From Psammoneis japonica (lineage: Eukaryota): 64,000 bases of DNA. Where the stretch lies: positions 124,001 to 188,000 of the forward strand of contig QPGO01000006.1 of NCBI GenBank assembly GCA_008632985.1. Reading direction: 5' to 3'. Shown one piece after another: positions 3,485-61,072 of the stretch. Under the pieces are notes generated by a model that worked only from the letters and a program-made list of their open reading frames with translations, ran no database searches and was not told the origin of the DNA. The translations under genes and the position numbers were made by a program. Every line of letters starts with the position of its first letter. The stretch's first letter is position 1.

Positions 3485-3543
3485 CGATATATATCGACAG
3501 TTTGTGGCAACACTACATTCGAGAGTAGTAAGTGAGAGAAGCG

Positions 3544-6585: not shown

Positions 6586-6841
6586 ACCCCGAGACAGTGG
6601 TCGAAAAGCAAACTCCGCGAGTAACTTGGGCGGACGACGCAAGACCGTCAACAGTGGTTGAAGAGATATCACGCCCCTCTCAGTCATCCGCAGACGACCC
6701 CGACTTTCATGATTCTCATTCACAAATTGAGGAGGGAGAAGAGAGTGCAACAGACGGCGAGGAATCAACGGATAGCGAAGAAAGTGACTCCGAGATGGGT
6801 GCGCCACCTGACGGACCAGGACAGACGGATAAGAATCAGCT

Positions 6842-8780: not shown

Positions 8781-8951
8781 TGTTTGACGTGACGTTTGGA
8801 CGTGTTACTTTGAGTTTGACAGGACTGTAATTCAGAAGAAGTAGAAAAGTAGATTATAATTTAGCGAGAGTGAGAAATGTGAAGACTGTTAATTTTAGTT
8901 TTTTGTGCCACTGACAAGGTGTTAGCAGTGTCGGCATCTGGTTGTCCAACA
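8648..8951 (+). repeat. 3' LTR (304 bp)
   Basis: Identical to 3181-3484 except at 8888, 8909, 8926 and 8930; preceded by the purine run AAGGAGGG (8640-8647). Confidence 0.95.
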
Positions 8952-24200: not shown

Positions 24201-26502
24201 TTTGAAATTGTTGATGGTCCGGTGCATGGGCATCCATGGCTGAACTGAAAAAAAAGGCACCAGTGTCTCGGGATTTGTCTGCTGCATCAACCCTTGCCTC
24301 AGCAAATGCATTCTCCAAAGCCACCACAGTTTCCAATTTGAGAGCTTGCCACTTTCTGACTCTTGCTCCCGCATTGAATCAGACTGCAAAATGCTTCTTG
24401 GTCATCAGCCGCCCCCACGATGATTGGATTCTTGGACTCTTGTGGCTCTTTCACTTGCGTGTTCTGGGGAGAAGCAACTGATTCCTTGATGTCTGAAGTG
24501 GATTGTAAGAAGTGCTTCAACACTTTCCAACTTGAAAGGTTCGCTGTCTTCTGACTCTGCCTCTCGTGTCTTTGTGGAATCCAATCTCTCCCTGTCAACA
24601 GCTGCAGCCGATCTCTTGTGGCTTTTTCCCTTGTGCGCACTCTCTGCAGCAGATTCTGCAGTGGCATGTGGATGATTCTGGATTCTCCAAGGCTGCAATG
24701 CTTCATTCTCCTTGATTCTTCTGCTTGAGTCATTGTGGAAACCAATTCCTCGTTCACTCTAGCTGCACCCGAAATGATTGGTGTGCTGACTTGCTTGCTC
24801 TCTGTGGCAGCGATTCTGTGGCATTTGCAGACGACTCTAACTTTTCCAAAGCTTCAGCGGTTTGCAAGTAGAAAATTTCTGTCTTTCTAACTCTTCATCT
24901 CAAGTCGTGTTGGATTTCATTTTCTCATTGTCAGCAGCTGCACCCATGATGATGTGAGCCAAGATCTCTTTTGGCTCTTTTCTGCATGTCTTTTTGGCAG
25001 CAGACTCCTCAGCATCCACAGATGATGCCAGAATGACAAGAGCCTCAATCGGCAACTGACAGCGCCAAATCAGATGCCGCCCCAAAAACAAGAGTTTTTG
25101 TCTCAACTGATTGTTCTTTTTTGGGTTTCGTCTCGGAAAGTGATGCAATGGATTCTGGAGAGTGTCTGCAGAGCTTCCTTGACAAAAATTGGATCTTCCT
25201 TTGCTTGTCTTCATTCGCTTTGTCCGCAGTTGCCTCCAGGATGTCAGTTGCATTTTCTTCTGACAATTTTTCTTGTGACACCGTCTCAGCTGCCGGCTCT
25301 TTTACAGCCTTGAGAATGAGGCCCCTCTCTCTTTGTTCTGCCATTCCTGACGCCACTTCTCAGGCATGCCTTCTGGAATTGTGGTGCTTTTCCACTGCAA
25401 GTCACTGGCTCAAGAGCTGGGCACAAAACAGTGTGAGCAGCCAACAGAAGCTGCACAGCAAACACATGTTAAAGCATCAGTCAACAGGGTTGGCCTTTTC
25501 CGCTGTGTTGGCGTTTGTTGTTTCTGCTTTCCAGATGGACAGATGGGTATCATCTTCTGCCCAACAAGAACCGCGCAAGTCTCCTGCTCAAGCTCAAATG
25601 ATTGCAGCCTGCCTGGGCTTGCCTCGGCCTCCTTCTCCTCCAATTTAAGTCTGAACTCAGCTGCCCAGTCAAATTGTTGCAGACTGCCCCGGCACGCATC
25701 GGCCTCCTCTTCCCGGTCAAATGATTGCAGCCCACCCTGGCATGCATCGGCCATCGGCCTCCTTTACCTGGTCAAATTATTGCAACCTACGGTAAAGCAG
25801 TGCTACCCCGGTGCCAGCACCTCCATGCATCGGCTTCCTTCCTCTTCTTCGTTGTGGTGAGAATTTTTAATTTCGAAATTTTGTATTATTATTTAAGTCT
25901 ATAAATATTTTATATGAAGTACTTTGTATATGTCAATAATATAATATATATCTATTTTAAAAATTTAAATTAGTCTACAAAATATGAATTTATATAGGAT
26001 TAACAATGGTTTCTCAGTATTTGAAATTTTTTTGTCCTACTCTATGCCAATAGTGAACGGCACGCCACAATGTACAGTACTGTAAGACTTCCGGTAGGGC
26101 CCTATCCCGCCCCAAAATGAAAACTTGAAAACACCGATGACAATGACAATGTGCACAAGCCAACACCCCCCACATCTATAAACAACGAGACGTCGCTTCG
26201 CTCTCACCGTTGTATGTGTCATTTGCAATACAAAAGTTGGAAGGATGCAGTAACGCATTGTGAAGTTTCATCCCGAGCCATGACACGTCGCTTCGCTCTC
26301 CTGTGGTGTCGTCATAGCCATGCGACATGCGAACGATGGAGCAGCACGCGCAGTTATAGTGCAACAGCTTCTTCCTTGCCCCTTACCATCGAGCACGATT
26401 CCCTTGTTCGGGGACCGAAAGGTGGCTACTTAGGACAAATGAAACATTGACTTGCCCTCATTGCAGCACATCAAACAGTGTGCAAAAACATGCCGTACGG
26501 CA

Positions 26503-26848
26503 TCTTCTGCCGTTGCACTTTGGATTTCTCCTACGTGCCAGCCACGTTGCTGCTCGTACAAGTCTCATTGCCGTTTCAGTCTTCGATGATTTCTTCTGCC
26601 GTTGCACTTTGGAGTTCTCCTACGTGCCAGCCACGTTGCTGCTCGTACAAGTCTCATTGCCGTTGCATTCTTCGATGACATCTTCTGCCGTTGCACTTTG
26701 GAGTTCTCCTACGTGACAGCCACGCTGCTTCTCGTACAAGTCTCATTACCGTTTCAGTCTTCGATGATTTCTTCTGCCGTTGCACTTTGGAGTTCTCCTA
26801 CGTGCCAGCCACGTTGCTGCTCGTACAAGTCTCGTTGCCGTTTCAGTT
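26503..26848. repeat. Tandem repeat, 4 x 89 bp
   Basis: Unit TCTTCTGCCGTTGCACTTTGG...CTCGTACAAGTCTCATTGCCG starts at 26503, 26592, 26681 and 26770. Confidence 0.95.
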
Positions 26849-27195
26849 TTCTCTGCACGTAGGAAATGGTAAGTTTTCCACGACGCGCTCTTCATTCGCT
26901 GCTTCGTGTCATCCCATTTCTCTCTCTGTCATAATTCATTCTCGTCCGCCTTTGTCAACCACACCCCAAACACTAGCACAAGCCTTCACAAGCCACACAG
27001 TCTCATCAACAAAGATCCCGCGAACTTTGCAAAGGGTGAGCAGCGAGTGTCGTATTTAACGTGATCCATGCATGCCTCAAGCTCACACGTCGTCATCATT
27101 CTTGAACACACTTTTTGCAGTACCGCTATATTTCCTCGTCGTACCCTTTCGCATCTAAAAACAGGTGAGTTTCTGGATTCGATTGTTTCGTCTGT

Positions 27196-36190: not shown

Positions 36191-37477
36191 ATGGACTTGT
36201 TGGGGACGTATGATTCATCCTCCGACGAGGAAGAAACGAGCAGCAACAACAACAACAAGGAGGAGGTGGGACCTGTTGCAAAAGGCGTCGCCGTGCAGCA
36301 AGCGGCAACAACGACACGAAACACGTCAGCAGGCTCGTCTCGTCGTCGTGGTGGTGGTAAAGTTGGAAAACGTATTGTATCACTCCATGCCGTGTTACCA
36401 CAAGCCATTCGTGATGAACTCAGCAAGAATAATCCGGCCGGTTATGACGATAGCAGTAGTGATAATGACGAAGACGAAATCGAAATCACCTCTGCAGCAG
36501 CGGCTGTTGGAGGCAGCCACAAGAAAAAGGAGCCAACCAAATCCCCCAATACAAACAGTGTCAAGAAGGACAGTGGTATTTCCTCCCTTTTATCCGAGCT
36601 TCAATCGACAACTCCCGCTATAAGGCCGACCATGCCCTTTGCTAGTACTGCCGCGCATGATGTTGATGCTTTGACAGACGACCAGAAACCAAGCACAACC
36701 GCCATGGGATTGTCACTGATATCCACAACAACAACTACTACTACTACTACTACTACTGCCAAAAAGGGTCAGGACGCTGTCGATATTCACGCTACCACGG
36801 AGGATAGCGTCTCGTCAGAATCAAACGAGCAGACAAACGCTGCTGTTGGTGCGGCACGACCAACAAGTACAAGAACAAATCCGGCTCCTTCAGCAACTTT
36901 GCCAAAAACGACAAGTACCACTACTACTCCCATTGCAGCCATTGCTCCTCGTCGCTTTAATGCTGCTCCTACAGCAACACAACAACCGCAAGTGGCTACT
37001 ACTGCTGCTGCGTCGTCCATGGGCCATTCTCTAAACGAGGCGCCTTCCGCCATGCATCAATACCCACCAGAATTTGACAATACCGCTCAAACACAACAAC
37101 ACTCCAAGAAAAAGAGCAAAAGGCAGTTGGAACAAGCCTTGAGAAGCGGACAATTTGATACTGTTGTGGATGACAATACTAATAGTAACATTGTTTCCAT
37201 TCAAGCCCAAGATCGCTCCGGTTATGTGGCTCCCCAGCAACACGAGCAATACCAGTCGCACGGTATCAAAAAGGCGGCTGTTAAAATGTACAATTCATCC
37301 ATGGGAAGTGATGAGTTGCAAAATCAAGTCACGTCCAAACACAGGTCCAAACATCAAATCAATCAGCTGGTACAGAGTGCCGTCAATTTGGAATTGCAAC
37401 GATCGCAACAAGCCGGGCTTGTCAGTAATAAGCAAAGTAATCGACGGGCCAATCCAAAACGAAAATATGGGTGGTAG
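36191..37477 (+). CDS. PRCC-like (MAD2B-interacting domain) protein, 428 aa
   Basis: N-terminal MDLLGTYDSSSDEE and C-terminal KHQINQLV..A..LEL...KRKYGW* resemble the PRCC family (KHQI..L...A...ELE...KYG(F/W)*); low-complexity middle. Confidence 0.75.
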   Translation: MDLLGTYDSSSDEEETSSNNNNKEEVGPVAKGVAVQQAATTTRNTSAGSSRRRGGGKVGKRIVSLHAVLPQAIRDELSKNNPAGYDDSSSDNDEDEIEITSAAAAVGGSHKKKEPTKSPNTNSVKKDSGISSLLSELQSTTPAIRPTMPFASTAAHDVDALTDDQKPSTTAMGLSLISTTTTTTTTTTTAKKGQDAVDIHATTEDSVSSESNEQTNAAVGAARPTSTRTNPAPSATLPKTTSTTTTPIAAIAPRRFNAAPTATQQPQVATTAAASSMGHSLNEAPSAMHQYPPEFDNTAQTQQHSKKKSKRQLEQALRSGQFDTVVDDNTNSNIVSIQAQDRSGYVAPQQHEQYQSHGIKKAAVKMYNSSMGSDELQNQVTSKHRSKHQINQLVQSAVNLELQRSQQAGLVSNKQSNRRANPKRKYGW

Positions 37478-38448
37478 ATATATAATATAATACTATGAGA
37501 TTGCAATATTGATGTTCTTGGGAAAACCCTCTAGTACATGGTTGTGCACTTTTGGTCCTATCGTGGTTCATTATTACAGACGGTTGTACTGTGTCTCGGA
37601 TGCATTGTTATAAACTAAACGCGTCTGTGTATTTTTCGTTGCAAGGACGAGTGGCGAGTAGTGGACGCATCATAAACGCCATCTCCAATTGGGCTCGGCG
37701 ACAATGATGCGCAGTAAGAGCTATCCAAGTTAGCTCGGAACGATGAGCACGAGAGCCTCAAATTTCTCGAGGAAGTGCAATCCCGATCGGTTGCATTGCA
37801 TCGCAGACATGTGGTGTTTTCATTGCAAGTGTGTTGGCTGTCTTCTTCCTTCTTGTGACGGATCCTTGTTTGGTGCTCTGTCATGCCAGCCATTTGCCAC
37901 TCATGTTTGTTTGTGCCCTCCTTCTTCTTTGGGCAATCATTGCAATGGGTGGGATGATTGGCAGTTGTCGTTCGCCAGTCCAAAAGCCGGAACATGTCTT
38001 GCTTGTCAAAAAGGGCAAAGAAGAGCTGTTTTGTTGAGCAATGCCAGCCCATCTTGAGCTTGGCATGTTTTCTTGTCTCCAGCAAAACAAGGGACACAGC
38101 CCTTGACAATTTCTTGGGCACAAATGCTCTGCTCATCCAGCCAGTTGAGGAACCCAAGCCTCCACAACATGAGGACATTTGTCTGCATTGAGCTCACAAA
38201 GGTCCAGATGCTTCTCTAATCTTGATTGCCGTGCACATGCTCAGCGCCGCTGGCGCCAGTTTGTTGTGGGCAAGCACCGCTTGCTTTGGGGGGCAAGACC
38301 CACTTGCTTGGTTGGGACCCCCAACAAGCCCAAGCTTTGATGTGATTTGAGCCAAAGTTGCTGATCGCCAGCAGCAGCGGTGTTCAGGCAGGAAGACAAG
38401 AGAGACCCATCCACTTTTTCTTCCATTCAGCAGGTCAAGGTTGGCCAT

Positions 38449-41400
38449 CTGCAACAGGAATGAAGTGAAAATAAAGTGAAGCACAGATGTTCGTTTCATT
38501 TAGACAGAAAATGTTAAAAGCACGATCGTCTAAGATCGATGGGTGCGACATCTGCGCCAAATGACTATCGCGAAACTTTCTACGAACATCAACTCAACGC
38601 GACAACGGCTGAAGACACGTGGATTTCTACGTGGTTGCACCAAATCGCCTCCATTGCAGACAGAATTCTCTTCTCGTTTGAGTGCTCTCACAATTTCTGA
38701 ATTGCTCGTCAGTTCACAGTCCATCATGAAAATCATGAACTTTGTCCTTGCCATCATTGCCGCCATGAGTGCTGGTGCAATCATCAGCCCTCTCTCTGCC
38801 TCGTTTGTTGATGCGGCAAAGCGCTCCGTTAGCGCCTTGTCGATCAAGGCCGCCACGGCGACCGACAGCATCGCCACGTTCAACCAAGAGCTCCCACGCA
38901 AGTTTTTGGACAACAACAGTTGCTCAGATGTCGATGCAACCTCCAGCTGCCACCATGACATCATCAGCAATGCTGCTCCCAGCACTGTTCCCTTCGAAAA
39001 CGCCGCCATCACTTCCAGCTTTTGCGTCTGTTTTGACGACGGCGACAAGTCTCCGAGTCGCGTCCAAGACCTCCTGCACAATGCCACGCCCACGATTGTG
39101 CCAGAAGAAGATGCCAACGAGTGTTGTGTCCATGACTGTTTTGTGCCGGACAACAATGGCGACTCCAACGGCAGCCTCCAGCAACTTTTTCTCAACACTG
39201 CTCCTGATGGCACGATTCAGACCAAGGCAGTCCCGTTCCAAGATGCGTTCACGACATTTTTTGGAGATCCAGTCGGCCTTCTTGTCGGACACACACGACA
39301 GCTTTTTGGGTGTCAAGACGGAAGCGTTTCAGCTTTGGTGGAAACTTGCAGATGCATTTTCGAACGACGTCATCGCGAAAATCCAGACTCAGGCTCGCGT
39401 TCTCAAAACCCCCAGAACAATTGATTGCCAATGCAGTCAATTGCAATTAATTGCAATTGTCAATTAATTGCAGCACGTTCACCTGTTCCTCAATGCATTG
39501 GCTTGAGTTACATTGCGCTTGATTGCCGAATGTTGTGTGTAAAAAATTGCATCTTTGTTGCACCTTTCTCAGCACAAAAAAGACGTGGTTTTCTGCACGG
39601 TCATAACTCCGTGGTGAGGAATTGTCGGTGTGGTTCTGGCACTTTTGCTCAGTTTGTTTGTTGTTGTTGTCGTCGTCGTCGCGAACGGTGTGTCACATCG
39701 CATCCCACTTCCTTCCTCCACAATGGAGCAAGCAGGAGACTTGCCCAAGGGCAAAGAACTTGTGCTCCTTGTCATGGATGTTGAAGAAACGACCGTCACG
39801 CTTCTCGATGAGGATGTAAAAGGACATAAAATCACGTGCCCAAACTGCAAGAACTGCTCGAAATTCATCAAGAAGAAAGATGGGTTTGCCAACCCCTGCA
39901 ACCATTGGCTCTCTTGCGTCAAGGATCAGGCTCCTGTCATTGTTGCTGAGCGCAGAAAACAATTGGCTGAAGCCGAAGCAAAGGAAGCAGAGGCAAAAGA
40001 GGGCAACTCGGCACCAGTGCAACAGAAATTTCAGGCTGTCACTAATTTCCACCGCTCGCTCCATGTGTGGACAGAGAAAATCGTCCTTCTAAATCGTCCA
40101 GTCAGCTGCGTGACGAATGAGGTCGAACAGTCTCATGCAAAGCATCCTGAAGTGTCCAGCACAGAGATGGCACTGGACACCATGTTTCACCTTGCTGAGA
40201 CAGTAGAGGGGAAGATCACTGATGTGATGGAAATGGCACCGGGTTGCCAAGTTGTTTGTGATGGCTGGACCAAGTGTGGTGTCCATTGTGTGGCCCTGTG
40301 TTCTTCTTTCAACAAGAAGCTGCGCATCATTGTAGACAGAACCGAGGAAACAAGAGAGATGCATGAGTTGCGTTCACTGTCGGCATCACCCATGCCGGCC
40401 ATGTCGGAGGATGACAAGGATGACAAGGACCTCGAAGCGGTGTCATTTGATGCAGACCACCACCAGAACCTCATTGAAGAAACATTCGACGTGTGTGACA
40501 AGCATGCCACATGGTTCATCCTTTGTCAAGCCGCCGACAGCGCATCCATCAACATCAAGGTTGCAAATGACATGGGCCATCCTCATGTGTCTTGCAAGAA
40601 TCACAACCTGAAGAACGACCTGATGATGGCACGGAATGAGGAGCTGAAGGATTGCACCACCAAGGTGTGCAATCTATCTTCATCTGTGAGGGCCTCCGCC
40701 AAATGTTCTGCTGCACTCCGAAATGCTGCTGCCAAGCCTGACAAGCACAGCAGCGTCCGTGCAAAGGCCACATCCATCACAAGGAAGTGGACAGGGTTGG
40801 AAGAAGCCCTCGGGTCCCACCTGAAGCTCCACCCTCATCACCACAAACTCATTGAAGAGGACAAGTCGGGCAAGCTGCAGGAACACCAGGAAACTGCAGA
40901 GATGTCCTTCGTTGGGAAATGCAAGACTCACGGCCGGCATCTGAAGCAGATGAAGAAGGTGTCAGCCCACATGCAGAGTAAAAAGAAATCGCTCAGCAAG
41001 TGCCAAGATCTTCTGAACAAGCTGCGTTCGAAGGTGACAAGGAAAGCGCACAAGCCCAAAAGCAGTTGCCACAAGTGCACCCCGGCAGGAACGCGACAAT
41101 TTTTTGCCTTTTCGGAACCCATTCTTGTCCAACCATCTCTCTGAGATCAAATCGAGTGTTGGACATTGGGGGAAGAGAGATGTGGAGATTGCAAAGACTT
41201 GGACGAACCTGCTGTGTGAAGAGGTGTTGCTGTTCTGGAACCCAATTTTGTCTGACTGTCGCTCTGCGATTGAGTGGAAAGCCAAGTGTTGGGGGGCGAG
41301 AGTTTTAGATGCATCGACTCATGTGATGAACGTTCTTCAAGATTCTGTGCCAATTGTGAAACCCCGCGAAGAAACCAAGAATGTTGTTGTTGAGGTTCTG

Positions 41401-42984
41401 GCACCTGCCATTGGAAGTTGGGTCACGACATTGAAACAAATCAGGCTCGCCTTTCGAATCGGTGCTTTTCAAGCACCCGGGAAAATTAGAATGTCAGTTG
41501 GGAGGCAATGCAATCGAGACGTTAGTGAGTCTCGATTGGCATCGAGGGGACACATGTTGCCAGTTAGATTCGAGCAGAAAGCATGGCACAGCATTGCAGT
41601 TGTCGTTTGCTTGTCTGCCACAGAGTGTTTGCCGCTTCGACTGCCAATCTTAACACACATTTTGTCGATGTCACTCTGCCGAGACAAAGTAGAGCCAGCA
41701 GACTGGTGCTTGTGACGGTGTCGTCTTCACAGTCCCTGCATTTTCCAGAGTCGGCACTGATCCAGTCGACGACGCCTGTGTTGCAAATGCAGACTCAGCA
41801 CATCCGCCTGGGCATGTGCATAGACCCACAGCACACATTCCATCATCGTATTCTCGGCACCGCAATCCACAATTCGAAAGAACTGAGAATGGACCACACC
41901 ACTTCTGTGTCTGCTGGATTCATTGCTCCTCCCATTGTCGTTCAACATCACTCCACAATGTCAATTTCCGTCTTCGACTCATGCCATTTGCCATCAATTG
42001 TCATGTTGCGTGTATCGACATCGTCAATTGCAACAATCAAATCGTCCACCCGAATCACACCCAGCAGTGGACTATCGTCCTTGAGCGACATGACTTGGGG
42101 TCCATCGAGTGTGGTGTCGACAACAATTCCCAATCGACCCAGTGGTGCGTGGACATCTTGTTGTGCCTTTCCGGGTGGAATGTCATGTTCGTTTTGAAAG
42201 GACGGTGCCGACAAGGAACCATCGGCTGTGGCAGCACCCAACATGGTGGTTCCACTCGACATGGAACCAGGATCATACGTGGCCGCATCTTGAATGCCGT
42301 CGTCAAGCGAATGGGCACATGTCAAGTCGCCTCCGCCCTTGCTGGGAATGCTGTTTGCCAGATGCGATCCATCGTTCCACGATGAGTCGCCACTGGATTT
42401 GGTTCGTTGTCGATGCGAGTGACTGCTCACTTGACTCTTGGGACTGGCTTGACCATCCTCCACGTAGGATAGATTGGAGGAACGAGCCGAACTTGGTGGT
42501 GCTTGTCGTCGTTGTGGTTGTTTGGACTTTTTCAGTGGAGTCCAAAAGGAACTGTCCAATTTCCTGTTCTTCGAAGCAGCAGCATTCGACAACGAAACCA
42601 TGGATGCATTGACGGCAAGAGACGTGTTGTTGTTGGGACCCATGCTTTTGAAACAGTTTCGTGGTCGAGCAGTCGTCCTTCTGGCATGACGACATCCCAC
42701 GGCAAAGAGGCAACACACAATCGCGGCACCCAAGACAATGGCAATGATCACTCCTGTCGAGAGTCCACTGTTCGAGGAAGAAGTTTTTTGCCATTGTTTT
42801 CGACATTGTTGGTTTCGTCTTGCATCACGGAATTGACGGACGTGACGGTGGAAAAGTGATCATCACCCAATTGCTGTAGCAGCGAAATAAAAGCTGGACT
42901 CTGTACGGCAAAGACATTTCGTAACAGACGACTGTAATCCAAATCCTCCGATGCAGTTGCAAAGCCTTGACGAGGACGAAAGTC
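38449..42984. pseudogene. Hypermutated duplicate (copy 1) of 52968-55835, interrupted by a hAT fragment
   Basis: Colinear with the secreted-protein gene and the 3' half of the PDZ membrane-protein gene; Tyr codons read Cys/His; frameshifts present. Confidence 0.93.
39404..41084 (+). mobile_element. 3'-truncated hAT-like DNA transposon (BED finger plus DDE transposase), hypermutated
   Basis: Inserted between GTTCT and GCAGGAACG of the parent sequence; motifs CPNC...NPCNHWLSC, VCDGWT, ADSASIN, SCKNH (CxxH) and TRKW; CAATTG/CAATTAATTG palindromes at the 5' end; no TSD seen. Confidence 0.8.
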
Positions 42985-45900
42985 GCAAGAAGCGCCTTTT
43001 CGCTTGTTGCGATAAGCAAAAGGCTCATCGCTGCTTGGCAAAGGAGAGAAAAACGTCCGCATTGTGGTGCGCTCTGTCGCGTTGCCCATGCCATCATCTT
43101 GTCATCGACAAAGGTGCGCAGTCCTCATCGTAAAAACAGTTCTCTTCATTTCTGCCACCAGCACAGCTGGCACTTTCTAGCGCCTTCCAATTGGGTCAAT
43201 GCTGCTTGTACATTGTTGATCGAAGTCTCTGCAACGACACTCATCATGTCCTTCTGGATGGCACTGAACGACAGCATCACCTCTTCTTGCACTTCCCAAG
43301 TCCTGCGAGTTTTGTTCGACTTTTTAATGTTCACACAGAGAGTCCGCATGAGTGGCATCATTTGTGCCCGTCTTTCCCGTCACCCCAAACGTTGCTCCTT
43401 TTTGTCAGTGTCACGGTCGACAAAGCCAGAAGGCTTGCTCCACTGTGTCGTTTTTGTCTCACGATTGTAATGGCAGGTCTGACCAGTGTGCAGCCTTCCA
43501 CAGAGACCGACTCTTTTTTGCTTCGTCAATTTCTGCTCCTGACCAACAGTTTCTTCATCGGAGGGACAATCATTTTCTGTCTCTGGATTAGAATGAGTGG
43601 ACAACATTGTGTTGTCTGGGCTGGCTTTCAATTGCTCAGAGACAGGCTGCATGGCCTGGGAAGTCCCCACAGTGGCGTCGCCAACTCCGCCACTTCAAAA
43701 ATCGGAGATCCGCCAATTGCAAAGATGTCTCCAGGTTCGGGAGGATAGATCAAGTGCTTCTTGACATCCTCGGGGCTCAATGGACCCAACTCCCTCCTAA
43801 ATCACCGAAGGAAGAGAAAAAGAGGCGAGCATTGAGAAAGGAAGCAGCGAACATTGGAACTCAAAAACACTGTTTGGAGCAACTGACTTGCCGTCCAGCC
43901 AAGCGGAGGCTGATTGAGAAACACGCGGTGTCTGGAATGTCTGGGATCCGAGTCCCACACATCATCCAGAATCTTCATGTACGCCAAACCACTCTCTGCC
44001 TCGCCCGAACACTCGAATGATTTACAGCATGAGAGCAATTCCTGTGCCAACCACTGGCAATCCAATCTTTGACACCTTTTCTCAAAAGAAAATGCCCTGG
44101 TCCGTTGGCCCAAGCCGCAAGCCACCCAATGCAGACATGTGCACCACACCACCAGGTCACGAACGATCTAGAAGCTTTGTGATTGGCCCCCCTTTGGCGT
44201 CGGTCCAGTGCGAAACACAAATCACCCCTGCGTCATTGGGGCGGGCAATGGGCGAAAGCACCCCACCAATGTCTCACCGCCCAGTTCACCGCGGAGACCA
44301 ACGAATTGGCCAGCGTCTTGACCAGAGTTTTGCAACGCGCCATTGGGATTGAAGCGCACCTCATGCGCATCAATGCCGTGTTTGGCATCCGTGTTGAGTG
44401 CTTTGAGGAGCATCCATGAAAGCCATCAATGGGAACACCGTTGACAGCAACGGAAGTAGAGTTGACGTCTTGACGTGGGAGACACAAAAAAGATGGACAC
44501 CGCCAGTCGCACTTCAGCGACAGGTCGAGGCTGGGTGCCGTTGATTCGAAGGAATTCACTTCACATCCACAGGAAAAGTGAAAATCGTCACCCACGCAAC
44601 ATGTGGCAGGATCATCTTGATCTGGATTCCAAGCGCAGGTCAACCACCAAAAGGCAAACACATGGCAGCCGTGGGTGCTTCGTTTCAGAGATTTTGTTGG
44701 CTCGATTGAACTTTGTCGTCAAATGTCAAAGTCCGTAGCGGTCCGTACACCACTGTCTTGGGAGAGAAGTTGGTGGTGCTGTGCAGGTCTAGCGGGATGG
44801 CTGTGGCGCCCGTCATGGGATAGATTTTGCTAAGAATGCATTCGCGCTCAGCGCAAGCTTGGTCAAATCATCCGACAGGACAGCAATCGCAGCGCTGGTC
44901 ACTTCTGTGAACCGTTTGCACAGACATGCAATGGCTAAAAGCCTCCATTTCTATCATCTCCCGCTCGCATCCAAGACAACATCCACAGAGTGGCAATGGT
45001 CTTGACCGCAATGTGCTCATTCGGTGGCAATTCAATCACAGTGGCACAGGCTCGTGATGATCTTTATCCTGCAGTGGCATGGCAAAAGTTGTGACAGGCC
45101 CGGGTTGCTGTGTCAGTTCTGTTTGTTTCCACGGAGGCTGGGGCAAAGAGACTCGGTCTTGCGAGTAAAACGGGTGTAACCTGTCTTGTTGCTTGGCACG
45201 CGTGCTTTCAACTGTCGTTCCAGATCAAGGTGCAAAGCCTCCGTCGGCGTTGGCTGAATTGTCTTTTCCACAGCTCGGGCTTTGAGATGCAGGCGCAAGC
45301 CTCTACATTCACCCACTGCACAAATCCACATGCCCTCAGTTTCTTCTACAAATTCAATGTCAGACTTGTGCGATGCAGAGGTCCGTCACAAAATCGACAC
45401 GTCGTCGATCACGAAAGATGCGTTGGTGCATGGGGGCAGCAACAGCCAGCGAAAGATGCGTTGGTGCATGGCAATGGCCACAAGGCTGCACCCTCTAATT
45501 GCAGCGGAGACAAGGCCCATCACAGTGGCAAACAGAAATTCGAAGTTAAAGTGAGCATCAACAAAACAGTGGAAGACAAACGCAGGAGAGCCCTTGCGCA
45601 CCTTGTTCTTGGCAAACTTTGTCAGATGCAGCAACGCCAGCCAGAAACGCTGACTCAAACGAAGGAAGCGCACGAGAAGGAATCTCATCGAACATGACAT
45701 TGCAAAGCTCGGGGGGTGCTAGAGTCGCCCTCCTCAGATTTGCTGCAGAGAGATGCTGCAGCATCTTTGGGAGACACTGTGGCATCTTTCGATGGTTCCT
45801 TGTCATCACTGTCCAGAATCTCAACAATGTTGCTTTGCTTGTGATCTGCAGAGGCCGCTGGTTTCTTTGCTTCTTTTACAGTGTCGTCACTTGTGTTGTC

Positions 45901-46199
45901 TTTATGGTCGATGCGTTTGCAGCCAAAAGACTCTGAGGCAACGCCGTGGGCACAGACCACCGGCACGTCGAAAATGTGTCAATCGCTTCTCCCACCCCCT
46001 CGACATCATCCTCCTTTTTCTCTGGAACAATGGGGGCGTTGCAGCAACGGGCGGTGGTGGCATCATCACGTGTCGTTGACGCCATGTTGTTTTGTGCAAC
46101 AGTTTCAAGTTTCAACAGTTGACTGGCATCTGGCATCAACAAAGTTGGACGACGGGCGGAGTGCGGATGGACGGAAAGCACCGGCAGGGTCATGAGGTT

Positions 46200-48385
46200 A
46201 GCACGACAGTCTAAGGTCGACAGGTGCACCAACTGCACCGAAATGACTTTCGCGAAACTTTCTCTGAACTTCAATGCAACGGAGAAACGGCCCACGCCAC
46301 GCAGATTTCTGCGTGTCTTGCACCACGGCGCCTCCATTGCAGACAGAATCTCTTCTCGTTCGAGTGCTCTCACAATTTCTGAATTGCTCGTCAGTTCACA
46401 GTCCATCATGAAAATCATGAACTTTGTCCTTGCCATCATTGCCGCCATGAGGGCTGGTGCCATCATCAGTCCTCTCTCTGCCTCGTTTGTGGGGTGCGGC
46501 AAAGCGCTCCGTTGGCGCCTTGTCGATCAAGGCTGCCACGGCAACCGACAGCATCGCCACGTTCAACCAAGAGCTCCTGCACAAGTTTTTGGACAACAAC
46601 AGTTGCTCAGACATCGACACTGCCCCCAGCCACTGCCATGACATCATCAGCAACGCTGCTCCCAGCACTGTTCCCGAAAACGCCATCATCACTTCCAGCT
46701 TCTGCACTCATTTTGATGACGGCAACAAGTCTCCGAGTCACGTCCAAGACCTCCTGCGCAACACCACGCCCACGATTGTACCAGAAGAAGATGCCAACGA
46801 GCATTGTGTCTATGACTGTTTTGTGCCGGACAACAATGGCGACTCCAATGGCAGCCTCCAGCAACTTTTTCTCAACACTGCTCCCGACGGCACGATTCAG
46901 ACCAAGGCAGTCCCGTTCCAAGATACGTTCACGACATTTTTGGAGATCCAGTCGGCCTTCTTGTCGGACACGTACGACAGCTTTTTGGATGTCAAGACGG
47001 AAGCGTTTCAGCTTTGGTGGAAACTTGTAGACGCATTCTCGAACGACGTCATCGCGCAAATCCAGACTCAGGCTCGCGTTCTGCAGGAACGCGATAATTT
47101 TTTGCCTTTTCGGAACCCATTCTTGTCCAACCATCTCTCCGAGGTCAAATCGAGTGTTGGACATTGGGGGAAGAGAGTTGTGGAGATTGCAAAGACTCGG
47201 ACGAACCTGCCACATGAAGAGGTGTCGCTGTTCTGGAACCCAATTTTGTCTGACTGTCGCTCTACGATTGAGTGGAAAGCCAAATGTTGGGGGGCGAGAG
47301 TTTTAGATACATCGACTCATGTGATGAACGTTCTTCAAGATTCTGTGCCGTTTCTGAAACCCCGCGAAGAAACCAAGAATGTTGTTGTTGAGGTTCTGGC
47401 ACCTGCCATTGGAAGTTGGGTCACGACATTGAAACAAATCAGGCTCGCTTTTCGAATCGGTGCTATTTGAGTACCCGGGAAAATTAGAGTGTCAGTTGGG
47501 AGGCAATGCAATCGAGACATTAGTGAGTCTCGATTAGCATCGAGGGGACATATGTTGTTAGTTAGATTCGAGCAGAAAGTATAGTGCAAAATTACAATTA
47601 TCGTTTGCTTGTCTACCATAGAGTGTTTGCCGCTTCGACCACCAATCCTAACACACATTTTGTCTATATCGCTCTACCGAGACAGAGTAGAGCTAGCAGA
47701 CTGGTGCTGGTAACGGTATCGTCTTTCATAGTCCCTGCATTCCCCAGAGTCGGCACTATTCCAGTCGACGTCGCCTGCATTGCAAACGCAGACTCAGCAC
47801 ATCCGCCAAGTTATGTGCATAGACCCACAGCACACATTCCATCATCGTATTCTCGGCACCGCAATCCACAATTCCAAAGAATCCAGAATGGACCACACCA
47901 CTTTTATTTCTACTGGATAGATTCGTTGCTTTTCCATTGTCATTCAACATCACTCCACAATGTCAATTTACGTCTTCGACTCATGCCATTCGCCATTAAT
48001 TGTCCAATCGAATTGGCCGTCATGTTGCGTGTATCAACGTCGTCAATGGCAACAATTAAATGATCTACCCGAATTACACCCACCAGTGGACTATCGTCCT
48101 TGAGCGACATGACTTGGGGTCCATCGAGTGTGGTATCCACGACGATTCCCAATCGACCCGGTGGTGCATAGACATCTCGTTGTGCCTTGCCGGGTGGAAT
48201 GTCGTGTTCGTCTTGAAAGGACGGTGCCGACAAGGAACCACCGGCTATAGTAGCACCCAACACGGTGGTTCCACTCGATGTGGACCCAGGATCGTATGTG
48301 GCCGCATCTTGAACACCGTCGTCGAGCGAATAGGCATACGTCAAATCCCCTCCGCCCTTGCTGCTGTTTGCCAAATACGATCCAT
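46200..48385. pseudogene. Partially hypermutated duplicate (copy 2) of ~53030-55220
   Basis: Colinear with the secreted-protein gene and the PDZ C-terminus; TA lost on the left, largely retained on the right. Confidence 0.93.
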
Positions 48386-48386
48386 T

Positions 48387-49310
48387 TGGGTGGTAGATAC
48401 GTGATATAATGTGAGATTGCAACCATTGATGTTCTTTGGGAAACTGGTGCTTGGTTGTGCAAGAAAACCGCATGGGTGACGGCGTGCTTTTGGTCCTATC
48501 GTGGTTCATTGTTGCAGATGGTTATACTCGGCGATCAGCTCCACAGATGGAAACAAACTCGTTGCCAGGGAATGTGAGTAAGTTGGGATCACGTCGATGA
48601 AATGCATCATGAACGCCACCTCCATTGGGCTCGGTGACAATGCTAGACCTACACAGTAACTTGCGAGCTCCAAGTCCGGAACGACAAGCACGAGAACTCG
48701 GTGGTCTCTCCATCGGATGACGAGATGATGATTCGAATCGTGCATGCAAATCCGAATCGTGCTTGTGCGACTTGGCATGCGGTAAAATGCCACCACATCT
48801 CTGTGAAGGCACACAACAGTCACCATGCTCTTCAAACGTAATCGCGGCCGTCGCTCGGCCTCTTTCTTGTGCCTCAACAGCAAGAAAATTTCAGGCCTCC
48901 CCCAACAATCCATCGACAAGCAACACCAGTGCACGTTGCCTTGATCATCGTTCTGAGGCTTCCTCTGCCTCAACGGCAAGAATGTCACAGGGTGCCCATC
49001 ACGCCAGTGACTCAAGCAAGCAAGACAAACCCTCTGATCATCCTCTTCCTGTCTCCTTGTTTATTCTGACTGCAGCAATCCCGATCGGTTGCATTGCATC
49101 GCAGACATGTGGCGTTTTCTTTGCAAGTGTGCTGGCTGTCTTCTTCTTTCTTGCAGTGCTTCCGGCTGAGTCGGCGATCTGTTTTCCCCGCCAAGTGTTG
49201 ATTTCCACCCTCCTTCTTTTGGCACTCATTGAGATGGGTGGGATGATTGGCAGTTGTTGTTTGCCAGTTGCCAAGCCGGAGTGTGTCTTGCTTGATGAAA
49301 AGGGCAAAGA
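48387..49310 (+). repeat. Diverged duplicate of ~37467-38020 (end and 3' flank of the PRCC-like gene), with insertions
   Basis: Shares TGGGTGGTAGATA...GAGATTGCAA, TTTTGGTCCTATCGTGGTTCATT and GCAATCCCGATCGGTTGCATTGCATCGCAGACATGTGG. Confidence 0.8.
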
Positions 49311-49829
49311 ACAGCTCCTTCCGCAAGAAAAGGGAACCACTGGCTTTGCCAAGGGACTCATGATGGGGACAGCAGCATCGATTTTGTCTTTTCTTCTGCT
49401 GCTTTTGCCAAAGGAGACACACAGAGGAATTCTTGTCATCTGCGATCCCCTGCACCGGATGCCCCCACATGGTGAGCTCATTGTTTCCAGCTGACGGCAG
49501 TGCCTGCGACTCGATGCGCTGCCAAATTTAGAGCAGCGAATGAAAATCCACAGTTGTGGTTGGAGCATGTAAAATGACAGACTCGAATGGCTTGTTGTGA
49601 TTGTGATTCTTTTGGGTGGGCAGTGCCACAACAGAGAGAATCACACCAGAACCAAAACGAAGCACCTTGAGCAGCACAGCACCGCTGTTTCTCCACTTCT
49701 CCGAGAAAAACCATCTGTTGCTGCAGATGACTTTTTGGATTCAGTCTGTGCTTTCTCTTCCTTTCCACTGTCCTTGGGGCTTTTCTTTTGTGCTTTGGTG
49801 CCTTTTCAAGAAGATGAGCTGGAGAAAGA

Positions 49830-52100
49830 AATGCCTTTTTGCTTGTTGCCAGAAGAAGCAAAAGGTTTGTCACTGCTTGGCAAAGAAGAGAGAAAGATCC
49901 GCATTGTGGTGAGCTCTTGTGCATTGCCCAAGCCATCATCTTGTCATCAACAGAGGGGCATTGCAGTCCTCATCATAAAATTGTTGATCAAAGCATCTGC
50001 AGTGACACTCATCATGTCCTTCTGGACCACACTGAAAGACAACATGTCCTCTGCTTGTTCTTCCCGAGTCCTGTGAGTTTTGTTTGACCTTTTGGTGTTC
50101 AGGCAGAGAATCCGCATGGGTGGCATGATGTGTGTCCATCTTTCTTGTCACCCCAAAGTCTTTCTGGGTGCAAACAGCTGAGCGACTTTCTTCTTTGTCA
50201 CCACATTGCTCCTTTTCAGTGCCATGGTCGTCAAAGCCAGATCCAATGTGTTGCTCTTCTTTCATGATCACATGGCAGGCCTGACCAGTGTGCAGCCTTC
50301 CACAGATGCCATTTCGTTTTGTCAACTTCTGCTCCTGACAAACTGTTTCTTCATCAGAGGACTGCCATTTTTGGTCTCTGGATTAGAAGGAACAGATGCC
50401 ACATCATCTGGGTTGGCTTCACCAGCAGCATCTCCAACTCCACTGCTTCAAAAATCAGAGGTCCATGCAAATGCCTCTTGACATCCTTGGGCTCAACAAA
50501 CCCATCTTCCACTCCCAAATCACCAAAAGAACCAAAGGAAGAGAAAAAGAGGCGAGCAATGAGAATCCAAGCAGCAAAAATTGGAGCTAAAAAAAGTTTG
50601 GAGTGACCGACTCACCATCCAGCCAAGCAGATCCAGCCAAGCAGAGGCTGCTTGAGAAAAATGCAGCATCTGACATGTTCGGGGTCCAAGTCTTGCACAT
50701 CATCCAGAATCTTCATGTGGGCCAAACCAGTCTCTGTCTCAGCTGATTAGATCAGGGCAAGCCCCATCTTCAATGTGCCCAGGGTGGCTTTGTCCACACA
50801 CTCCCCGGGTGCTTGAATGATCATTTGTGGCACAAAATGTCAATCACCACAATGTTGCTGGGACGGGTGATGGGCAAAAAGCACCCCGCCAATTTTGCAA
50901 CATGCCATTGAGATTGAAACACACCTCATGCATGTTGATGCTGTGCTTGGCACCCATGTTGAGCACTTCGGGGAGCATCAATGGAAGCCATCACGGAAAC
51001 AGAGTTGACATCTTGACATTGGAGATGCAAAAAGATGGACACTGCCAGTCATTCTTGAGCAACAGGTTGACACTGGGTGCCATCGATTTGCCAGAAATTA
51101 CCTCATTTCTGCAGGAAAAGAAGTGCAAATCATCATCCATGTGTTGAGGCATGTTGAGTGACATGGGCCAAATGCCAATGATCTCCATGGATCGCGCATC
51201 AATGAGCTTGCTCCACCCAGTGTGCTGCAAGCAGCAGGATCATCTTGATCTAGACTCCAAGTGCAGGTTGACAACCAAAGGCAAACACGTGGCAGCCATG
51301 GGTGCTTTGTTTCTGAGATTTGGGTGCAGGAAAGATGCAAAGGAGCCTGCATGATTTTTTGCACATTGTGGCTGTTCTTGTCAATGAAAGCATTGTGCAT
51401 GCACCCATGCAAGCAGGAGCGCAGATGTCCAATTGCACTTCCTCTCATTTGGCACCACCAAGGCACATCAGCATGAACAAGGCACACCTCTTGAAGAAGG
51501 TTGCAACAGCATTGTGATCTTGCTCAGAGACATTGAATGACTCAATGATGCTGCCATGAACTTTGTTGTCAAATGTCAAGTCTGCAGCATTGCACACTTC
51601 ACAATCTTGGGAAAGATGACATTCCCTTGTTGGCAGTGCTGGCAGAGGTGGTTGGAGGTGCTCCACCTCTGTCGAAGGCACAGAAAGCACATTGGGCACA
51701 GTGCCTGTTGGTTGCGGCTCACCTTTGGCAACACTTTCCCAGAAAGACCAGCTTTGACAACCACTCACATGGACATGAGCCCATGCTGCAACTTGAAGCC
51801 TGCATTTCTGTCATCCCCTGCTTGTGTCCATGATGCCAGCTGCAGTGGCAACAGTCCTGACCACAACATGCTTTCAGCTGCAACTCCACAAGTGTGGCAC
51901 AGGCTTGTGATGTTCTTGATCCTGCGGTGGTGTGGCAAAAAAAATTAAGATGGGCCCGGATTGCTGCATCAGCTTTGTTGGTTTCCATGGAGTCTGGGGC
52001 AAAGAGACTTGGTCTTCAGCAAAACAGGCACAACCTGTCTTGTTGCTTGGCATGTTCCACTGTTGTTCTAGAGCAAGGTGCAAAGCCTCCATTGTTGGTG
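49830..52100 (+). repeat. Diverged duplicate of ~42990-45250
   Basis: Shared colinear blocks: TCCGCATTGTGGTG, ACACTCATCATGTCCTTCTGGA, CTGACCAGTGTGCAGCCTTCCACAGA, ACATCATCCAGAATCTTCATGT, GCAGGATCATCTTGATCT, CTGGGGCAAAGAGACT. Confidence 0.8.
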
Positions 52101-52515
52101 GTGTTGGCTGAGCCATCTTTTCTTGGAACTTGGTGCAGTGCCTGCCAGCAGAAGCTGGGTCACCATCATTTGAAACAAATTGGGCTCACCTTTTGAGCAG
52201 GTGTTTTTAAGTGCCTGGAAAAATCAGATGTCAAGTGGGAGACAGCCCAGTCAAATGTCAGTGAGCCTCACAAAATTGTCAGCCAGCTTCAAGCGGAAAG
52301 CACAGCGCAGCAACACAACAGAGATTTGCAGCCACTTTCCATGATGACCCCTCTTGCAGAAAAAGAGCACATGTTGGGTTGCTGGCACATGATGAGGAGA
52401 ATGGACAAATTCAGCACCAGAGTCAAAAAGCATGCTTTGGAAAGAGTCAAGCACAGTGTCTTTCCTCACATGCAAGCACCAAGCCAAGGAAAGACCTGAC
52501 AATGCAACAAACAGG

Positions 52516-52728
52516 GAAGCTGTGCAACTCTTCCATGGGAAGCAATGAGTTCTTGCAAAAAATCAACTCACAAGCTCAAACACACAAAAGTGCATGATTG
52601 TGCACCAAGTCAATCATCAGCTGGCACAGAGTGCCATGAACTTGGAAGTTCAATGACCCCAACAAGCCAGACTTGTCAGGAAGAAAAGCTGGCACACCCC
52701 CATCCAAAACGAAATTGTGGGTGGCAGT
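52516..52728 (+). pseudogene. Decayed fragment of the PRCC-like C-terminus
   Basis: KLCNSSMGSNE versus KMYNSSMGSDE; CCAAAACGAAATTGTGGGTGGCAG versus CCAAAACGAAAATATGGGTGGTAG (stop TAG read as CAG). Confidence 0.8.
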
Positions 52729-53240
52729 GATTGATTTGCTCTTGGAGTGAGAAGGGGTTTGTGCAGTAAAAGAATGGCTCAATGCAGAGGAGATTCACAA
52801 GGTTTCCCCGCACAGTCATTGAGATGAGTGGAGTTCGTGAGGTGCATGTCACAGCTTCAAACTCAGTCTCTGCAACGCCGCAACAGAGAGAATCACACTG
52901 GAGTCAAAACAAAGTGCTGTGGGGAGCCCCCTGGCTTCTTGAATTGACGCCATGTTGTTTTATTTGACTGCAACAGGAATGAAGTGAAAAGAAAGTGAAG
53001 CACAAATTTTATTTAGACAGAAAATATTTAAAAGTACGATCGGCTAAGATCGATAGGGTCGCCAACTGCGCCGAAATAACTATCGCGAAACTTTCTTGGA
53101 ACATCAACTCAACGCGATAACGGCTGACGCCACGTAGATTTCTACGAGGTTTGTACCACGGCGCCTCCATTGCAGACAGAATCTCTTCTCGTTCGAGTGC
53201 TCTCACAATTTCTGAATTGCTCGTCAGTTCACAGTCCATC

Positions 53241-54305
53241 ATGAAAATCATGAACTTTGTCCTTACCATCATTGCTGCCATGAGCACTGGTGCCATCATC
53301 AGCCCTCTCTCTGCCTCGTTTATTGATACGACAAAGCGCAGCGTTAGCGCCTTGTCGATCAAGGCCGCCACGGCGACCGAAAGTATCGCCACGTTCAACC
53401 AAGAGCTCCTACGCAAGTTTTTGGACAACAACAGTTACTCAGATATCGATACCACCCCCAGCTACTACCATGACATCATCAGCAACGCTGCTCCCAGCGC
53501 AGTTCCCTTCGAAAACGCCATCATCACTTCCAGCTTCTGCGTTCATTTTGACGACGGCGACAAGTCTCCGAGTCGCGTCCAAGACCTCCTACGCAATACC
53601 ACGCCCACGATTGTACCAGAAGACGATGCTAACGAGTATTGTGTCTATGACTATTTCGTACCGGACAACAATGGCGACTCCAACGGCAGCCTCCAGCAAC
53701 TTTTTCTCAACACTACTCCCGATAGCACGATTCAGACCAAGGGAGTCCCGTTCCAAGATACGTTCACGATATTTTTGGAGATCCAGTCGGCCTTCTTGTC
53801 GGACACGTACGACAGCTTTTTGGATATCGAGACGGAAGCGTTTCAGCGTTGGTGGAAACTTGTAGACGTATTTTCGAACGACGTCATCGCGCAAATCCAG
53901 ACTCAGGCTCGCGTTCTGCAGGAACGCGATAATTTTTTGCCTTTTCGGAACCCATTCTTGTCCAACCATCTCTCTGAGATCAAATCGAGTGTTGGACATT
54001 GGGGGAAGAGAGTTGTGGAGATTGCAAAGACTCGGACGAACCTGCTATATGAAGAGGTGTCGATATTCTGGAACCCAATTTTGTCTGACTGTCGCTCTAC
54101 GATTGAGTGGAAAGCCAAATATTGGGGTGCGAGAGTTTTAGATACATCGACTCATGTGATGAACGTTCTTCAAGATTCTGTGCCGTTTCTGAAACCCCGC
54201 GAAGAAACCAAGAATGCTGTTGTTGAGGTTCTGGAACCTGCCATTGGAAGTTGGGTCACGACATTGAAACAAATCAGGCTCGCCTTTCGAATCGGTGCTT
54301 TTTAA
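53241..54305 (+). CDS. Putative secreted hypothetical protein (~354 aa)
   Basis: Uninterrupted ORF from MKIMNFVLTIIAAMSTGA (signal-peptide-like); least mutated of three copies; no recognisable domain. Confidence 0.55.
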   Translation: MKIMNFVLTIIAAMSTGAIISPLSASFIDTTKRSVSALSIKAATATESIATFNQELLRKFLDNNSYSDIDTTPSYYHDIISNAAPSAVPFENAIITSSFCVHFDDGDKSPSRVQDLLRNTTPTIVPEDDANEYCVYDYFVPDNNGDSNGSLQQLFLNTTPDSTIQTKGVPFQDTFTIFLEIQSAFLSDTYDSFLDIETEAFQRWWKLVDVFSNDVIAQIQTQARVLQERDNFLPFRNPFLSNHLSEIKSSVGHWGKRVVEIAKTRTNLLYEEVSIFWNPILSDCRSTIEWKAKYWGARVLDTSTHVMNVLQDSVPFLKPREETKNAVVEVLEPAIGSWVTTLKQIRLAFRIGAF

Positions 54306-54774
54306 GTACCCGGGAAAATTAGAATGTCAGTTGGGAGGCAATGCAATCGAGACGTTAGTGAGTCTCGATTAGCATCGAGGGGATATATGTTATTAGTTAG
54401 ATTCGAGCAGAAAGTATAGTACAACATTACAATTATCGTTTGCTTATCTGCCATAGAGTGTTTGCCGCTTCGACTACCAATCCTAGCACACATTTTGTCG
54501 CTATCGCTCTCTCGAGACAGAGTAGAGCTAGCAGACTGGTGCTGGTAACGGTATCGTCTTCATAGTCCCTGCATTCCCCAGAGTCGGCTCTGTTCCAGTC
54601 GACGTCGCCTGGCTGTATTGCAAACGCAGACTCAGCACATCCGCCAAGGTATGTGCATAGACCCACAGCACACATTCCATCATCGTATTCTCGGCACCGC
54701 AATCCACAATTCCAAAGAACCGAGAATGGACCACACCACTTCTATGTCTACTGGATTCGTTGCTCCTCCTATTA

Positions 54775-60101: not shown

Positions 60102-61072
60102 TGGAGACGATGGAATGTTGTTGTTGTGTTTTTGTTTTGTTGTTGCGACGAAGTATTACTCAACATGCTGGCCAGACGAGCAACGCGGACGAACTTTTTG
60201 TTGTTGTATTCTTCAGCAAAGGACGTCCTGTGGAAGTCTTCTTTTTGTTGCCTTGACGACGAAAGAAGGAACTTGTTGTTGTTGTTGTTGTAGTTGTACT
60301 ACCAACCATGCTGCTTTTACGAGTCTCCATGGTAAATAGAAAGAGAGAGGAGTGAAATGAGGTAGGTACAACACAAACAACACAGAGCGGGTGTGCGTGA
60401 TGAAATGACGCGGGTGGATGGATTTTGCAGTGCGTTGCGCCACGCTAAAAATCTAGGAGACATTGATATACATCCTCATCAACATATAAAACATTCCGAC
60501 ATTGGATGGCACTTTCTTAAAACCCGAAAATAACAATTCACAAATCGGACCTACCAAATGGCTTGACGGGACTTAAAGTACAAGACTGAGAGCATTCAAT
60601 TTTATTCAAATTCAAAGAACTATGAATCCTCATGAATAGTCGCGGCGGCGTCGCTACACACGACTTGTTCGATTTTTCATTGGCAGTACGAATGGTACGT
60701 GTCGTATCAAATTGCGTAGAAACTACACACAGCTGGGCGAGCATGCCTTTCCATTTTTTTTTTTCGAAAAAAATGACGAAAAAAAGTGAGCACAGCAACC
60801 GTGCCGTATGCTGGCTGTGCGCTGTGAATAATCGAGTAGTGAACGTCTGCATCTGTGTTTGTTGTGCGTTCTTCACATCACCAACATCAACAAGAACAGA
60901 ACGGGCGGACGCTTACGTATACATGCCAACACCATAAAATGCAATATGGGTATGTACGCCCACATAATGTGTTCGAGAGCTTGTGCTGACTGCACACTAC
61001 TGTTGTTTTAACGGGGGTCTCACACAATTATTTCTTCTCTCATTTGTTTCTTACGATTTAGGAACAGCGACC

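Follow-up and report, generated by a model that had tools for sequence, protein, structure and literature searches.

Loss of TA steps and the tyrosine-free frame of a truncated hAT transposase in a repeat block of a diatom-like genome

The open reading frame at 39618-41144 of the window (the whole stretch of 64,000 bases analysed here) contains no tyrosine codon, and this absence is a symptom of a process that erases TA steps from DNA. It is highly probable that the frame belongs to a dead, 3'-truncated hAT copy lying in a repeat block that was rewritten by a mutator targeted to the locus. Such a mutator would change A to G where the A follows a T, on either strand, giving TA to TG or TA to CA, at about 300 times the background rate, with a 3-5-fold acceleration if the next base is a pyrimidine (TAY). 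Tyrosine codons would be its best substrate and would end as Cys or His, the codons of Ile, Val, Leu and Thr being recoded too, and as it would make no stops, frames would stay open without selection. The genome is called diatom-like from one of its housekeeping genes: of at least 120 relatives listed for it, six carry an organism name, and each of these six is a diatom.

The element and its reading frame

The insertion lies inside a host repeat, of which the uninterrupted copies at 52968-55835 and 46200-48385 served to delimit it, and no target-site duplication remains. The limits 39404-41084 proposed by the first-pass annotation coincide exactly with those of the insertion in this self-comparison. 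The features of the element, with L002 and L008 standing for two other copies in the genome, are:

39404-41084, plus strand: hAT element, 5' 1681 bases of 2399, 3'-truncated (94.6% identity to L002 over 1689 columns)
39404-39415, plus strand: left terminal inverted repeat, exceeding those of L002 and L008 by one base
39723-41084, plus strand: transposase codons 1-454, without Tyr (alignment to homologues)
40260-40262, plus strand: first catalytic Asp, D180, intact (Asp in 98% of outgroups)
40536-40538, plus strand: second catalytic Asp, D272, intact (Asp in 94% of outgroups)
40593-40604, plus strand: CxxH motif (C291, H294), intact and original, not former tyrosines (Cys in 52/52, His in 51/52)
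41085-41144, plus strand: read-through into host DNA, 19 codons and the closing TGA (self-comparison)

The identity of the element came from its fold. The sister copy L002 of the same genome (G000) is full-length, with 2399 bases, both terminal inverted repeats (TIRs) and a 685-codon open frame. Its predicted structure (pLDDT 86.8) gave, among the matches listed below E 1e-3, only Hermes chains (best 5.6e-10), the next fold match being the P element (E 0.029). Identity to Hermes (PDB 4D1Q) is 13%. The C-terminal hAT dimerisation family PF05699 was matched at E <= 0.01 by 11 of the 54 alignment members (best 6.7e-6) and not by L002 itself; Pfam gave no transposable element family for the window ORF, L002, P0001 or P0002, and a PDB sequence search returned nothing under E 0.02. 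According to the model, the element is a hAT transposon with a Hermes-like fold, and its initial designation as a hAT transposase is borne out by this fold together with the PF05699 matches among its relatives.

The catalytic residues D, D, R/W and E (PMC6027215) and the CxxH motif (PMC4763223) have been described as features of hAT transposases. L002 keeps D180, W182, D272, C291xxH294, R356, W358 and E566 at conserved columns, the equivalence of its D/D/R/W/E to the Hermes numbering being drawn from the order of the motifs. The window transposase displays a BED-type zinc finger (C39, C42, H61, C65), D180, W182, D272, CxxH and R/W, with a 6-base in-frame deletion directly after CxxH. It ends after codon 454. 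The last ~195 residues are gone, the hAT C-terminal region among them, and with them 31 conserved C-terminal columns besides that of E566; the right TIR is absent too.

L002 and the short copy L008 each carry 11-base TIRs on both sides, while the window copy has the left one only. L008 is flanked by a candidate target-site duplication of 8 bases with one mismatch, and L002 either by 8 bases with an additional base on the right or by 9 bases with a mismatch, its empty site being L010; the window copy has no flanking duplication. At its junctions (39403/39404 and 41084/41085) the left end is precise, the target is not duplicated and the host has lost no base. Such a structure would need a deletion that stopped precisely at the duplication, or else a templated insertion that was aborted. 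L008 (about 580 bases), L012 and L013 are internally deleted short derivatives with the same TIR and TA-erased surroundings, and one further copy (L003/L007) is partial and frameshifted. No TA-normal copy of this hAT element was found in G000, where copy counts are lower bounds; a metagenome scan yielded one relative among 117 candidates, L014, with a TA O/E of 0.72, not depleted.

The frame at 39618-41144 is open over 508 amino acids from stop to stop, or 504 counted from the GTG at 39630, and holds 21 Cys, 28 His and no Tyr. TAT, TAC, TTA and ATA codons are all absent from it, and its 1527 bases include just 8 TA steps. The motifs quoted in the first-pass annotation are all present in it, and the description of an open frame free of tyrosine was confirmed. 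The transposase more likely starts at the ATG at 39723, since Met occupies that column in 92% of the outgroup sequences, and only 454 codons derive from the element. Tyrosine has a median content of 2.48% in the 95 homologues of at least 300 amino acids; the probability of finding none in 455 residues is 1e-5 at this median and 2e-3 at the 5th percentile. All 47 homologues covering at least 350 amino acids of the same span hold 7-20 tyrosines, so none of them is as devoid of tyrosine as the window ORF.

Short-read contigs from run X1 span 39606-40512 and 40569-41066. They depart from the window at 14 sites, none of which creates a Tyr codon and all of which (14/14) show the L002 allele. At the 51 sites of these spans where the window and L002 differ, the contigs match the window allele 37 times; they come from one study's runs, whose sample may be that of the assembly itself. 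At the truncation junction 41084/41085, no bridging contig occurred among the 16 of 491 pieces listed, which neither confirms nor refutes it. The runs listed for the sequence included no RNA dataset, a result that is uninformative about expression.

Direction and context of the TA loss

Alignment of the window copy with L002 over 1683 bases gave 86 differences, 44 of which form 22 doubles with TG in one copy and CA in the other (0.87 expected by chance). Of the rest, 7 reflect a TA kept by one of the copies, 26 fall on CG steps and 9 lie elsewhere. TG facing CA implies that the ancestor had TA and that each copy changed it once, and on this reading of the alignment the ancestral TA steps were changed independently in the window copy and L002. 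The host repeat displays the same pattern: from its TA-normal copy B to the interrupted copy A, 118 TA steps became 55 TG and 40 CA, with 22 kept as TA and 1 otherwise changed, and only 2 changes ran in reverse. Both TG and CA occur among the host copies at 59 of 92 TA sites of copy B, and heavily changed copies are discordant at 303 of 887 doubly changed sites (34 pairs summed, leaving out 2 pairs with under 10 sites). These host copies share ancestry and the pooled counts are thus not independent. The claimed direction, a loss of TA, is therefore upheld by the discordance and by the outgroups. Contrary to what had been proposed, zero tyrosine does not fix it independently, as on its own it restates the TA depletion.

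At the discordance rate of the host copies, 22 discordant sites correspond to about 64 doubly changed sites and about 79 ancestral TA steps, a density of 47 per kb versus 43.5 per kb in TA-normal DNA. This near-normal density implies that most of the erasure postdates the split between the window copy and L002. Their background divergence is only about 0.5%, which gives a TA rate ratio of about 280-320; this ratio of about 300 is an indirect value, derived from a copy pair and not from new mutations. Outside TA, A to G and T to C changes affect 1-9% of sites in the host-repeat copies, nine rows of which lost 49-87% of their TA.

The bases around the TA step strongly influence its fate. In the depleted blocks, TA steps that read TAY on both strands, on one or on neither persist at 0.024, 0.118 and 0.388 of the density in normal DNA (11/416, 84/635 and 71/163; p 1e-24), and a four-parameter hazard fit gives 2.3 for T, 1.4 for C, 0.45 for A and 0.46 for G. 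In the nine heavily changed rows, YTAY went to TG 133 times and to CA 49 times, and TA was kept at 24 of 195 RTAY and 36 of 72 YTAR, outcomes which place the determinant 3' of the mutated A. Models with a 5' and a 3' determinant fit the survival counts identically, and the placement comes from the outcome counts alone. CTAT goes against the rule in the table of all copies (12 TG, 21 CA), row L038 has no bias between TG and CA (9 vs 8), and the survival fit and the outcome counts disagree on the order of TAC and TAT. As TAY is both the best substrate and the tyrosine codon, the frame ends with zero tyrosines rather than few. L002 has two tyrosines in 650 amino acids counted from Met, both in its 3' third, a 5'-to-3' gradient inside one element, and its last 200 bases keep 12 TA steps near the right TIR, mostly in the resistant contexts TTAA, CTAG and TTAG.

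Probable former tyrosine codons could be placed in the window copy from two sources, all on the plus strand:

39855, 40143, 40287, 40299 and 40503: first five of ten former Tyr codons proposed from DNA alone (TG versus CA or TA between copies)
40818, 40839, 40938, 41067 and 41070: last five of these ten (same basis)
39825, 40257, 40494 and 40968: four further former Tyr codons, from protein homologues only

The first-pass annotation had expected conserved tyrosines of homologues to map to Cys or His, and the alignment agrees: these residues occupy 13 of 22 Tyr-type columns of the window protein versus 35 of 433 other columns (p 1e-8), a Tyr-type column being one where Tyr is commonest in the outgroups or where two or more of the 4 closest relatives have it. 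The remaining nine Tyr-type columns probably hold residues that were never Tyr in this lineage. Its second expectation, that reverting TGY and CAY to TAY would raise profile scores, was right for chosen sites and wrong in general. Tyr restored at the ten codons inferred from DNA gained 12.5 bits against an HMM of 52 outside homologues, a value reached by none of 300 random sets of 10 drawn from the other 38 Cys/His (-18.1 +/- 8.4 bits), although two of the ten (45 and 261) lowered the score when reverted singly. Reversion of every Cys and His changed the score by -64.8 bits. The residues put forward as examples fared likewise: C189 and C193 are former tyrosines by the DNA evidence and C179 by the homologues, while the His of NPCNH (H61) is the zinc-finger His conserved in 42/43, the Cys of TKC (C185) aligns to Asn in homologues, and the Cys of NPCNH (C59) is ambiguous. 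Judging from these alignments, some of the example residues are original.

The open frame, which the first-pass annotation tied to inactivation by recoding, is the default outcome of the process. Over all hexamers, TA to TG or CA creates a stop in 0 of 2560 cases, and the process removes TAA and TAG, which stand at about 1.8 per kb each versus 8.6 in normal DNA; a single CGA codon of the ORF is available for CG decay to TGA. The frame is open because TA to TG or CA cannot make stops. Codon differences between the window copy and L002 (16 synonymous, 31 non-synonymous) fit neutral transitions (p 0.88), and with no stops possible the open frame is no sign of selection. Long open frames in TA-erased blocks are thus no evidence of function.

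The claim that recoding disabled the window copy is unsupported, since the 3' truncation removes E566, the dimerisation region and the right TIR, and this copy is dead regardless of how many tyrosines it holds. That recoding itself inactivates the transposase, as a missense-based defence, may nevertheless hold for the full-length L002, although we would give this rather less than an even chance. L002 has both TIRs, its 685-codon frame, D180, D272, E566, CxxH and W, yet two tyrosines in 650 residues, and its visible lesions are substitutions only. The columns of Y189 and Y258 are 98% aromatic in homologues and hold Cys or His in both copies, and the lack of a TA-normal element copy in G000, within the lower-bound counts, also speaks for inactivation by recoding. 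Against it, truncation suffices for the window copy, and in each copy recoding reaches just three of the 97 conserved columns (Y189C, Y258C and L218S in the window; Y189H, Y258C and V161A in L002) and no catalytic residue, L002 matching the consensus at 81 of the 97; the element may also have been silenced before mutation. L002, as a full-length recoded transposase, offers a test case for whether missense alone kills an element.

Depleted blocks and the host repeat

The window holds several blocks with a TA O/E of about 0.0-0.25, versus about 0.6 elsewhere, and with raised TG and CA. The block around the element and the copies of the host repeat are:

38001-47400, no strand assigned: TA-depleted block holding the element (TA O/E 0.06-0.24 per 500 bases; edges set by eye)
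38449-39403, plus strand: host repeat copy A, left half, TA-erased (34/39 TA steps of the unhit copy changed to TG or CA; row L038)
41085-42984, plus strand: host repeat copy A, right half, TA-erased (46/57 in the scored part; row L028)
46200-48385, plus strand: host repeat copy C, crossing the block edge, with graded TA retention
52968-55835, plus strand: host repeat copy B, not interrupted and TA-normal, reference copy for the spectrum of changes

Both halves of copy A together had 95 of 118 TA steps changed. Copy C keeps 2 of 24 TA steps at 46200-46799, 8 of 20 at 46800-47399 and 35 of 49 beyond. Among the 29 rows of the host family (29 of the 52 host-repeat matches in G000, copy A contributing two rows), nine lost 49-87% of their TA and 20 lost 1-31%, copy B being unhit. 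These comparisons indicate that targeting is set by the locus and not by being repeated. TA is erased in L002 itself, whereas its flanks retain 19 TA steps, 14 of them also present at the empty site L010 and 5 lost there; the flanks show one discordant site as well, and two changes of other kinds. L002 would have been either targeted in place or moved after being eroded. At the level of aligned sequence, the comparisons of copies demonstrate the spectrum of the process, its direction, its occurrence on both strands, its independence between copies, its context and its copy-specific targeting.

A Copia element at 3181-8953, with matches to zinc knuckle, integrase and reverse transcriptase, is TA-normal and lies between two TA-erased blocks; TA is scarce also at 8600-8800 and 3100-3300. 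Its LTRs are 98.7% identical, and their 4 differences, all TA in the left and TG or CA in the right, fall within the last 66 bases of the right LTR, adjoining the erased block, a distribution that suggests recent activity and spreading of the process.

Other observations concern the surroundings. Eleven TA-normal host copies, from 20 of the 29 rows, have one flank almost TA-free and the other normal. The host repeat carries, at 53121-54305 and 54775-55710, a 394-aa ORF without known family, for which no Atlas match was found, and a PDZ-like ORF on the other strand. An older tandem segmental duplication underlies the region (37287-45242 versus 48384-52727, in pieces 68-90% identical). CG is depleted nearly as much as TA at 9000-14000, 50000-53000 and 63000-64000 (O/E 0.0-0.3), and the CG O/E of the block 38000-47400 is mostly 0.4-1.1, so that the two decays appear partly uncoupled between blocks. 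No Pfam transposable element match was obtained for 39 further ORFs of the window, most of them in depleted blocks. The window also includes a glycosyltransferase family 90 ORF in TA-normal DNA (60968-62605) and short tandem repeats (16888-17454 and 26501-26851).

Possible causes and comparison with known systems

The most likely chemistry would be adenine deamination in DNA by an enzyme of TadA/ADAT type, to which we give an even chance; guidance by silent chromatin, and any defensive role, would be additional properties of such a system. TadA-derived adenine base editors are reportedly most efficient at TAY (PMC10879117) and resemble the process described here in converting A to G in DNA with the highest activity in this context, but they are engineered and guided, and the common motif is a lead rather than evidence of the same enzyme family. 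Nor does it prove adenine deamination, since the same event can be written as T to C at RTA on the opposite strand. The TAY preference may serve as a yardstick for matching candidate enzymes. Five TadA-family matches were found in G000; they look like ordinary tRNA and dCMP deaminases, the three translated genes resembling a TadA-type tRNA deaminase, a dCMP deaminase and an ADAT2-like gene, and these apparent housekeeping genes include no candidate for a special mutator.

Formyluracil mispairs with G, and a lesion on thymine, with a modified or oxidised T in RpTpA mispairing with G, would give the same outcome without adenine deamination. Sequence cannot tell the strands apart in this respect; the TAY preference fits a known adenine deaminase fold, and Tet_JBP had no match in G000, which is not proof of absence as 14 control genomes had none either. 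We consider such a lesion improbable. Equally unlikely in our view is a passive by-product, in which an error-prone polymerase or a repair defect would act in methylated heterochromatin with no defence function. CG loss accompanies TA loss (26 of the 86 differences between the window and L002) and may share its cause, diatom transposable elements are methylated through DNMT5 (PMC9998398), and host repeats near transposable elements are also changed, with graded edges. The strict dinucleotide specificity, with only 1-9% of A to G or T to C changes outside TA, points to an enzyme instead, although a passive origin, which concerns why the changes arise and what they serve, would agree with the spectrum. 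An artefact of sequencing or assembly, such as a modified base misread by the polymerase, is very improbable: the contigs stem from a single study's runs, possibly on the assembly's own sample, but they contain the TA-free state together with alleles of both copies, and the outcomes are fixed, different between copies and graded in level.

Still harder to credit is the opposite direction, a RIP-like gain of TA in the TA-normal copies, or an element natively poor in tyrosine. RIP does interconvert the same dinucleotides, and one of the 95 homologues of at least 300 amino acids, P0150, also has no Tyr. The 22 TG/CA sites nevertheless need a TA ancestor, the TA-normal copies stand at the background O/E of about 0.6 with the erased ones far below, and the outgroups have tyrosine. 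P0150, a distant hAT relative known as a protein of 332 amino acids from an ENA contig, looks changed itself, with Cys or His at 4 of 7 Tyr-consensus columns and a best G000 match of 34%, and may carry the same mark in another genome. The absence of tyrosine can flag affected elements in protein databases without DNA.

RIP of filamentous fungi changes C to T at CpA, making TA and stop codons, and affects both copies of a duplication. The process described here resembles it in dinucleotide-specific transitions that saturate repeats and spread into their neighbours. It differs in losing TA (95 losses versus 2 gains) where RIP makes it, and in leaving copy B untouched beside copies 90-93% identical and 5-15 kb away. 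From these comparisons it works like a reversed RIP, yet it fails the defining tests of RIP. An inverse RIP in the full sense, a chromatin-guided DNA adenine deaminase of diatoms with a TadA-like TAY preference, disabling transposons through missense changes only (tyrosine to Cys or His first), still active and shared with a rhizarian alga, is a tentative proposal that we hold to be more doubtful than the chemistry alone.

The closest known system is the TpA hypermutation reported in integrated NCLDV and virophage DNA of the rhizarian alga Bigelowiella natans (Mettrop et al., bioRxiv 10.64898/2026.01.13.699255), the only relevant report found in a literature search on TpA depletion or hypermutation (diatom, transposable element, deamination) that covered subscription journals sparsely. 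The change was measured there de novo, at about 1000-fold, and a putative ADAT2-like adenine deaminase was proposed (bioRxiv 10.64898/2026.01.13.699255). Both systems turn TpA into TpG or CpA on both strands and are confined to regions: in our data, A to G and T to C changes are restricted to TpA on both strands, and the block structure and L002 confine them to foreign or repeated DNA in the minority of blocks with identified contents. The enhancement is about 1000-fold there and about 300-fold here, from new mutations there and copy pairs here, and transposable element domains are enriched among the TpA-poor genes of B. natans. The present process acts in a diatom-like genome on a DNA transposon, the end of an LTR and host-repeat copies, with near-complete erasure (O/E of about 0.1 versus 0.45 in the B. 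natans NCLDV region). The TAY preference, the recoding of tyrosine and the no-stop property were not encountered in the main text of that report, whose Fig. 2B and Table S2 may be informative about context. If enzymatic, the process would give a second eukaryotic lineage a natural A-to-G mutator of DNA that is context-specific and brings transposons close to saturation, and if the two lineages share a deaminase it would point to a genome defence widespread among eukaryotes and to a natural editor of A to G in DNA.
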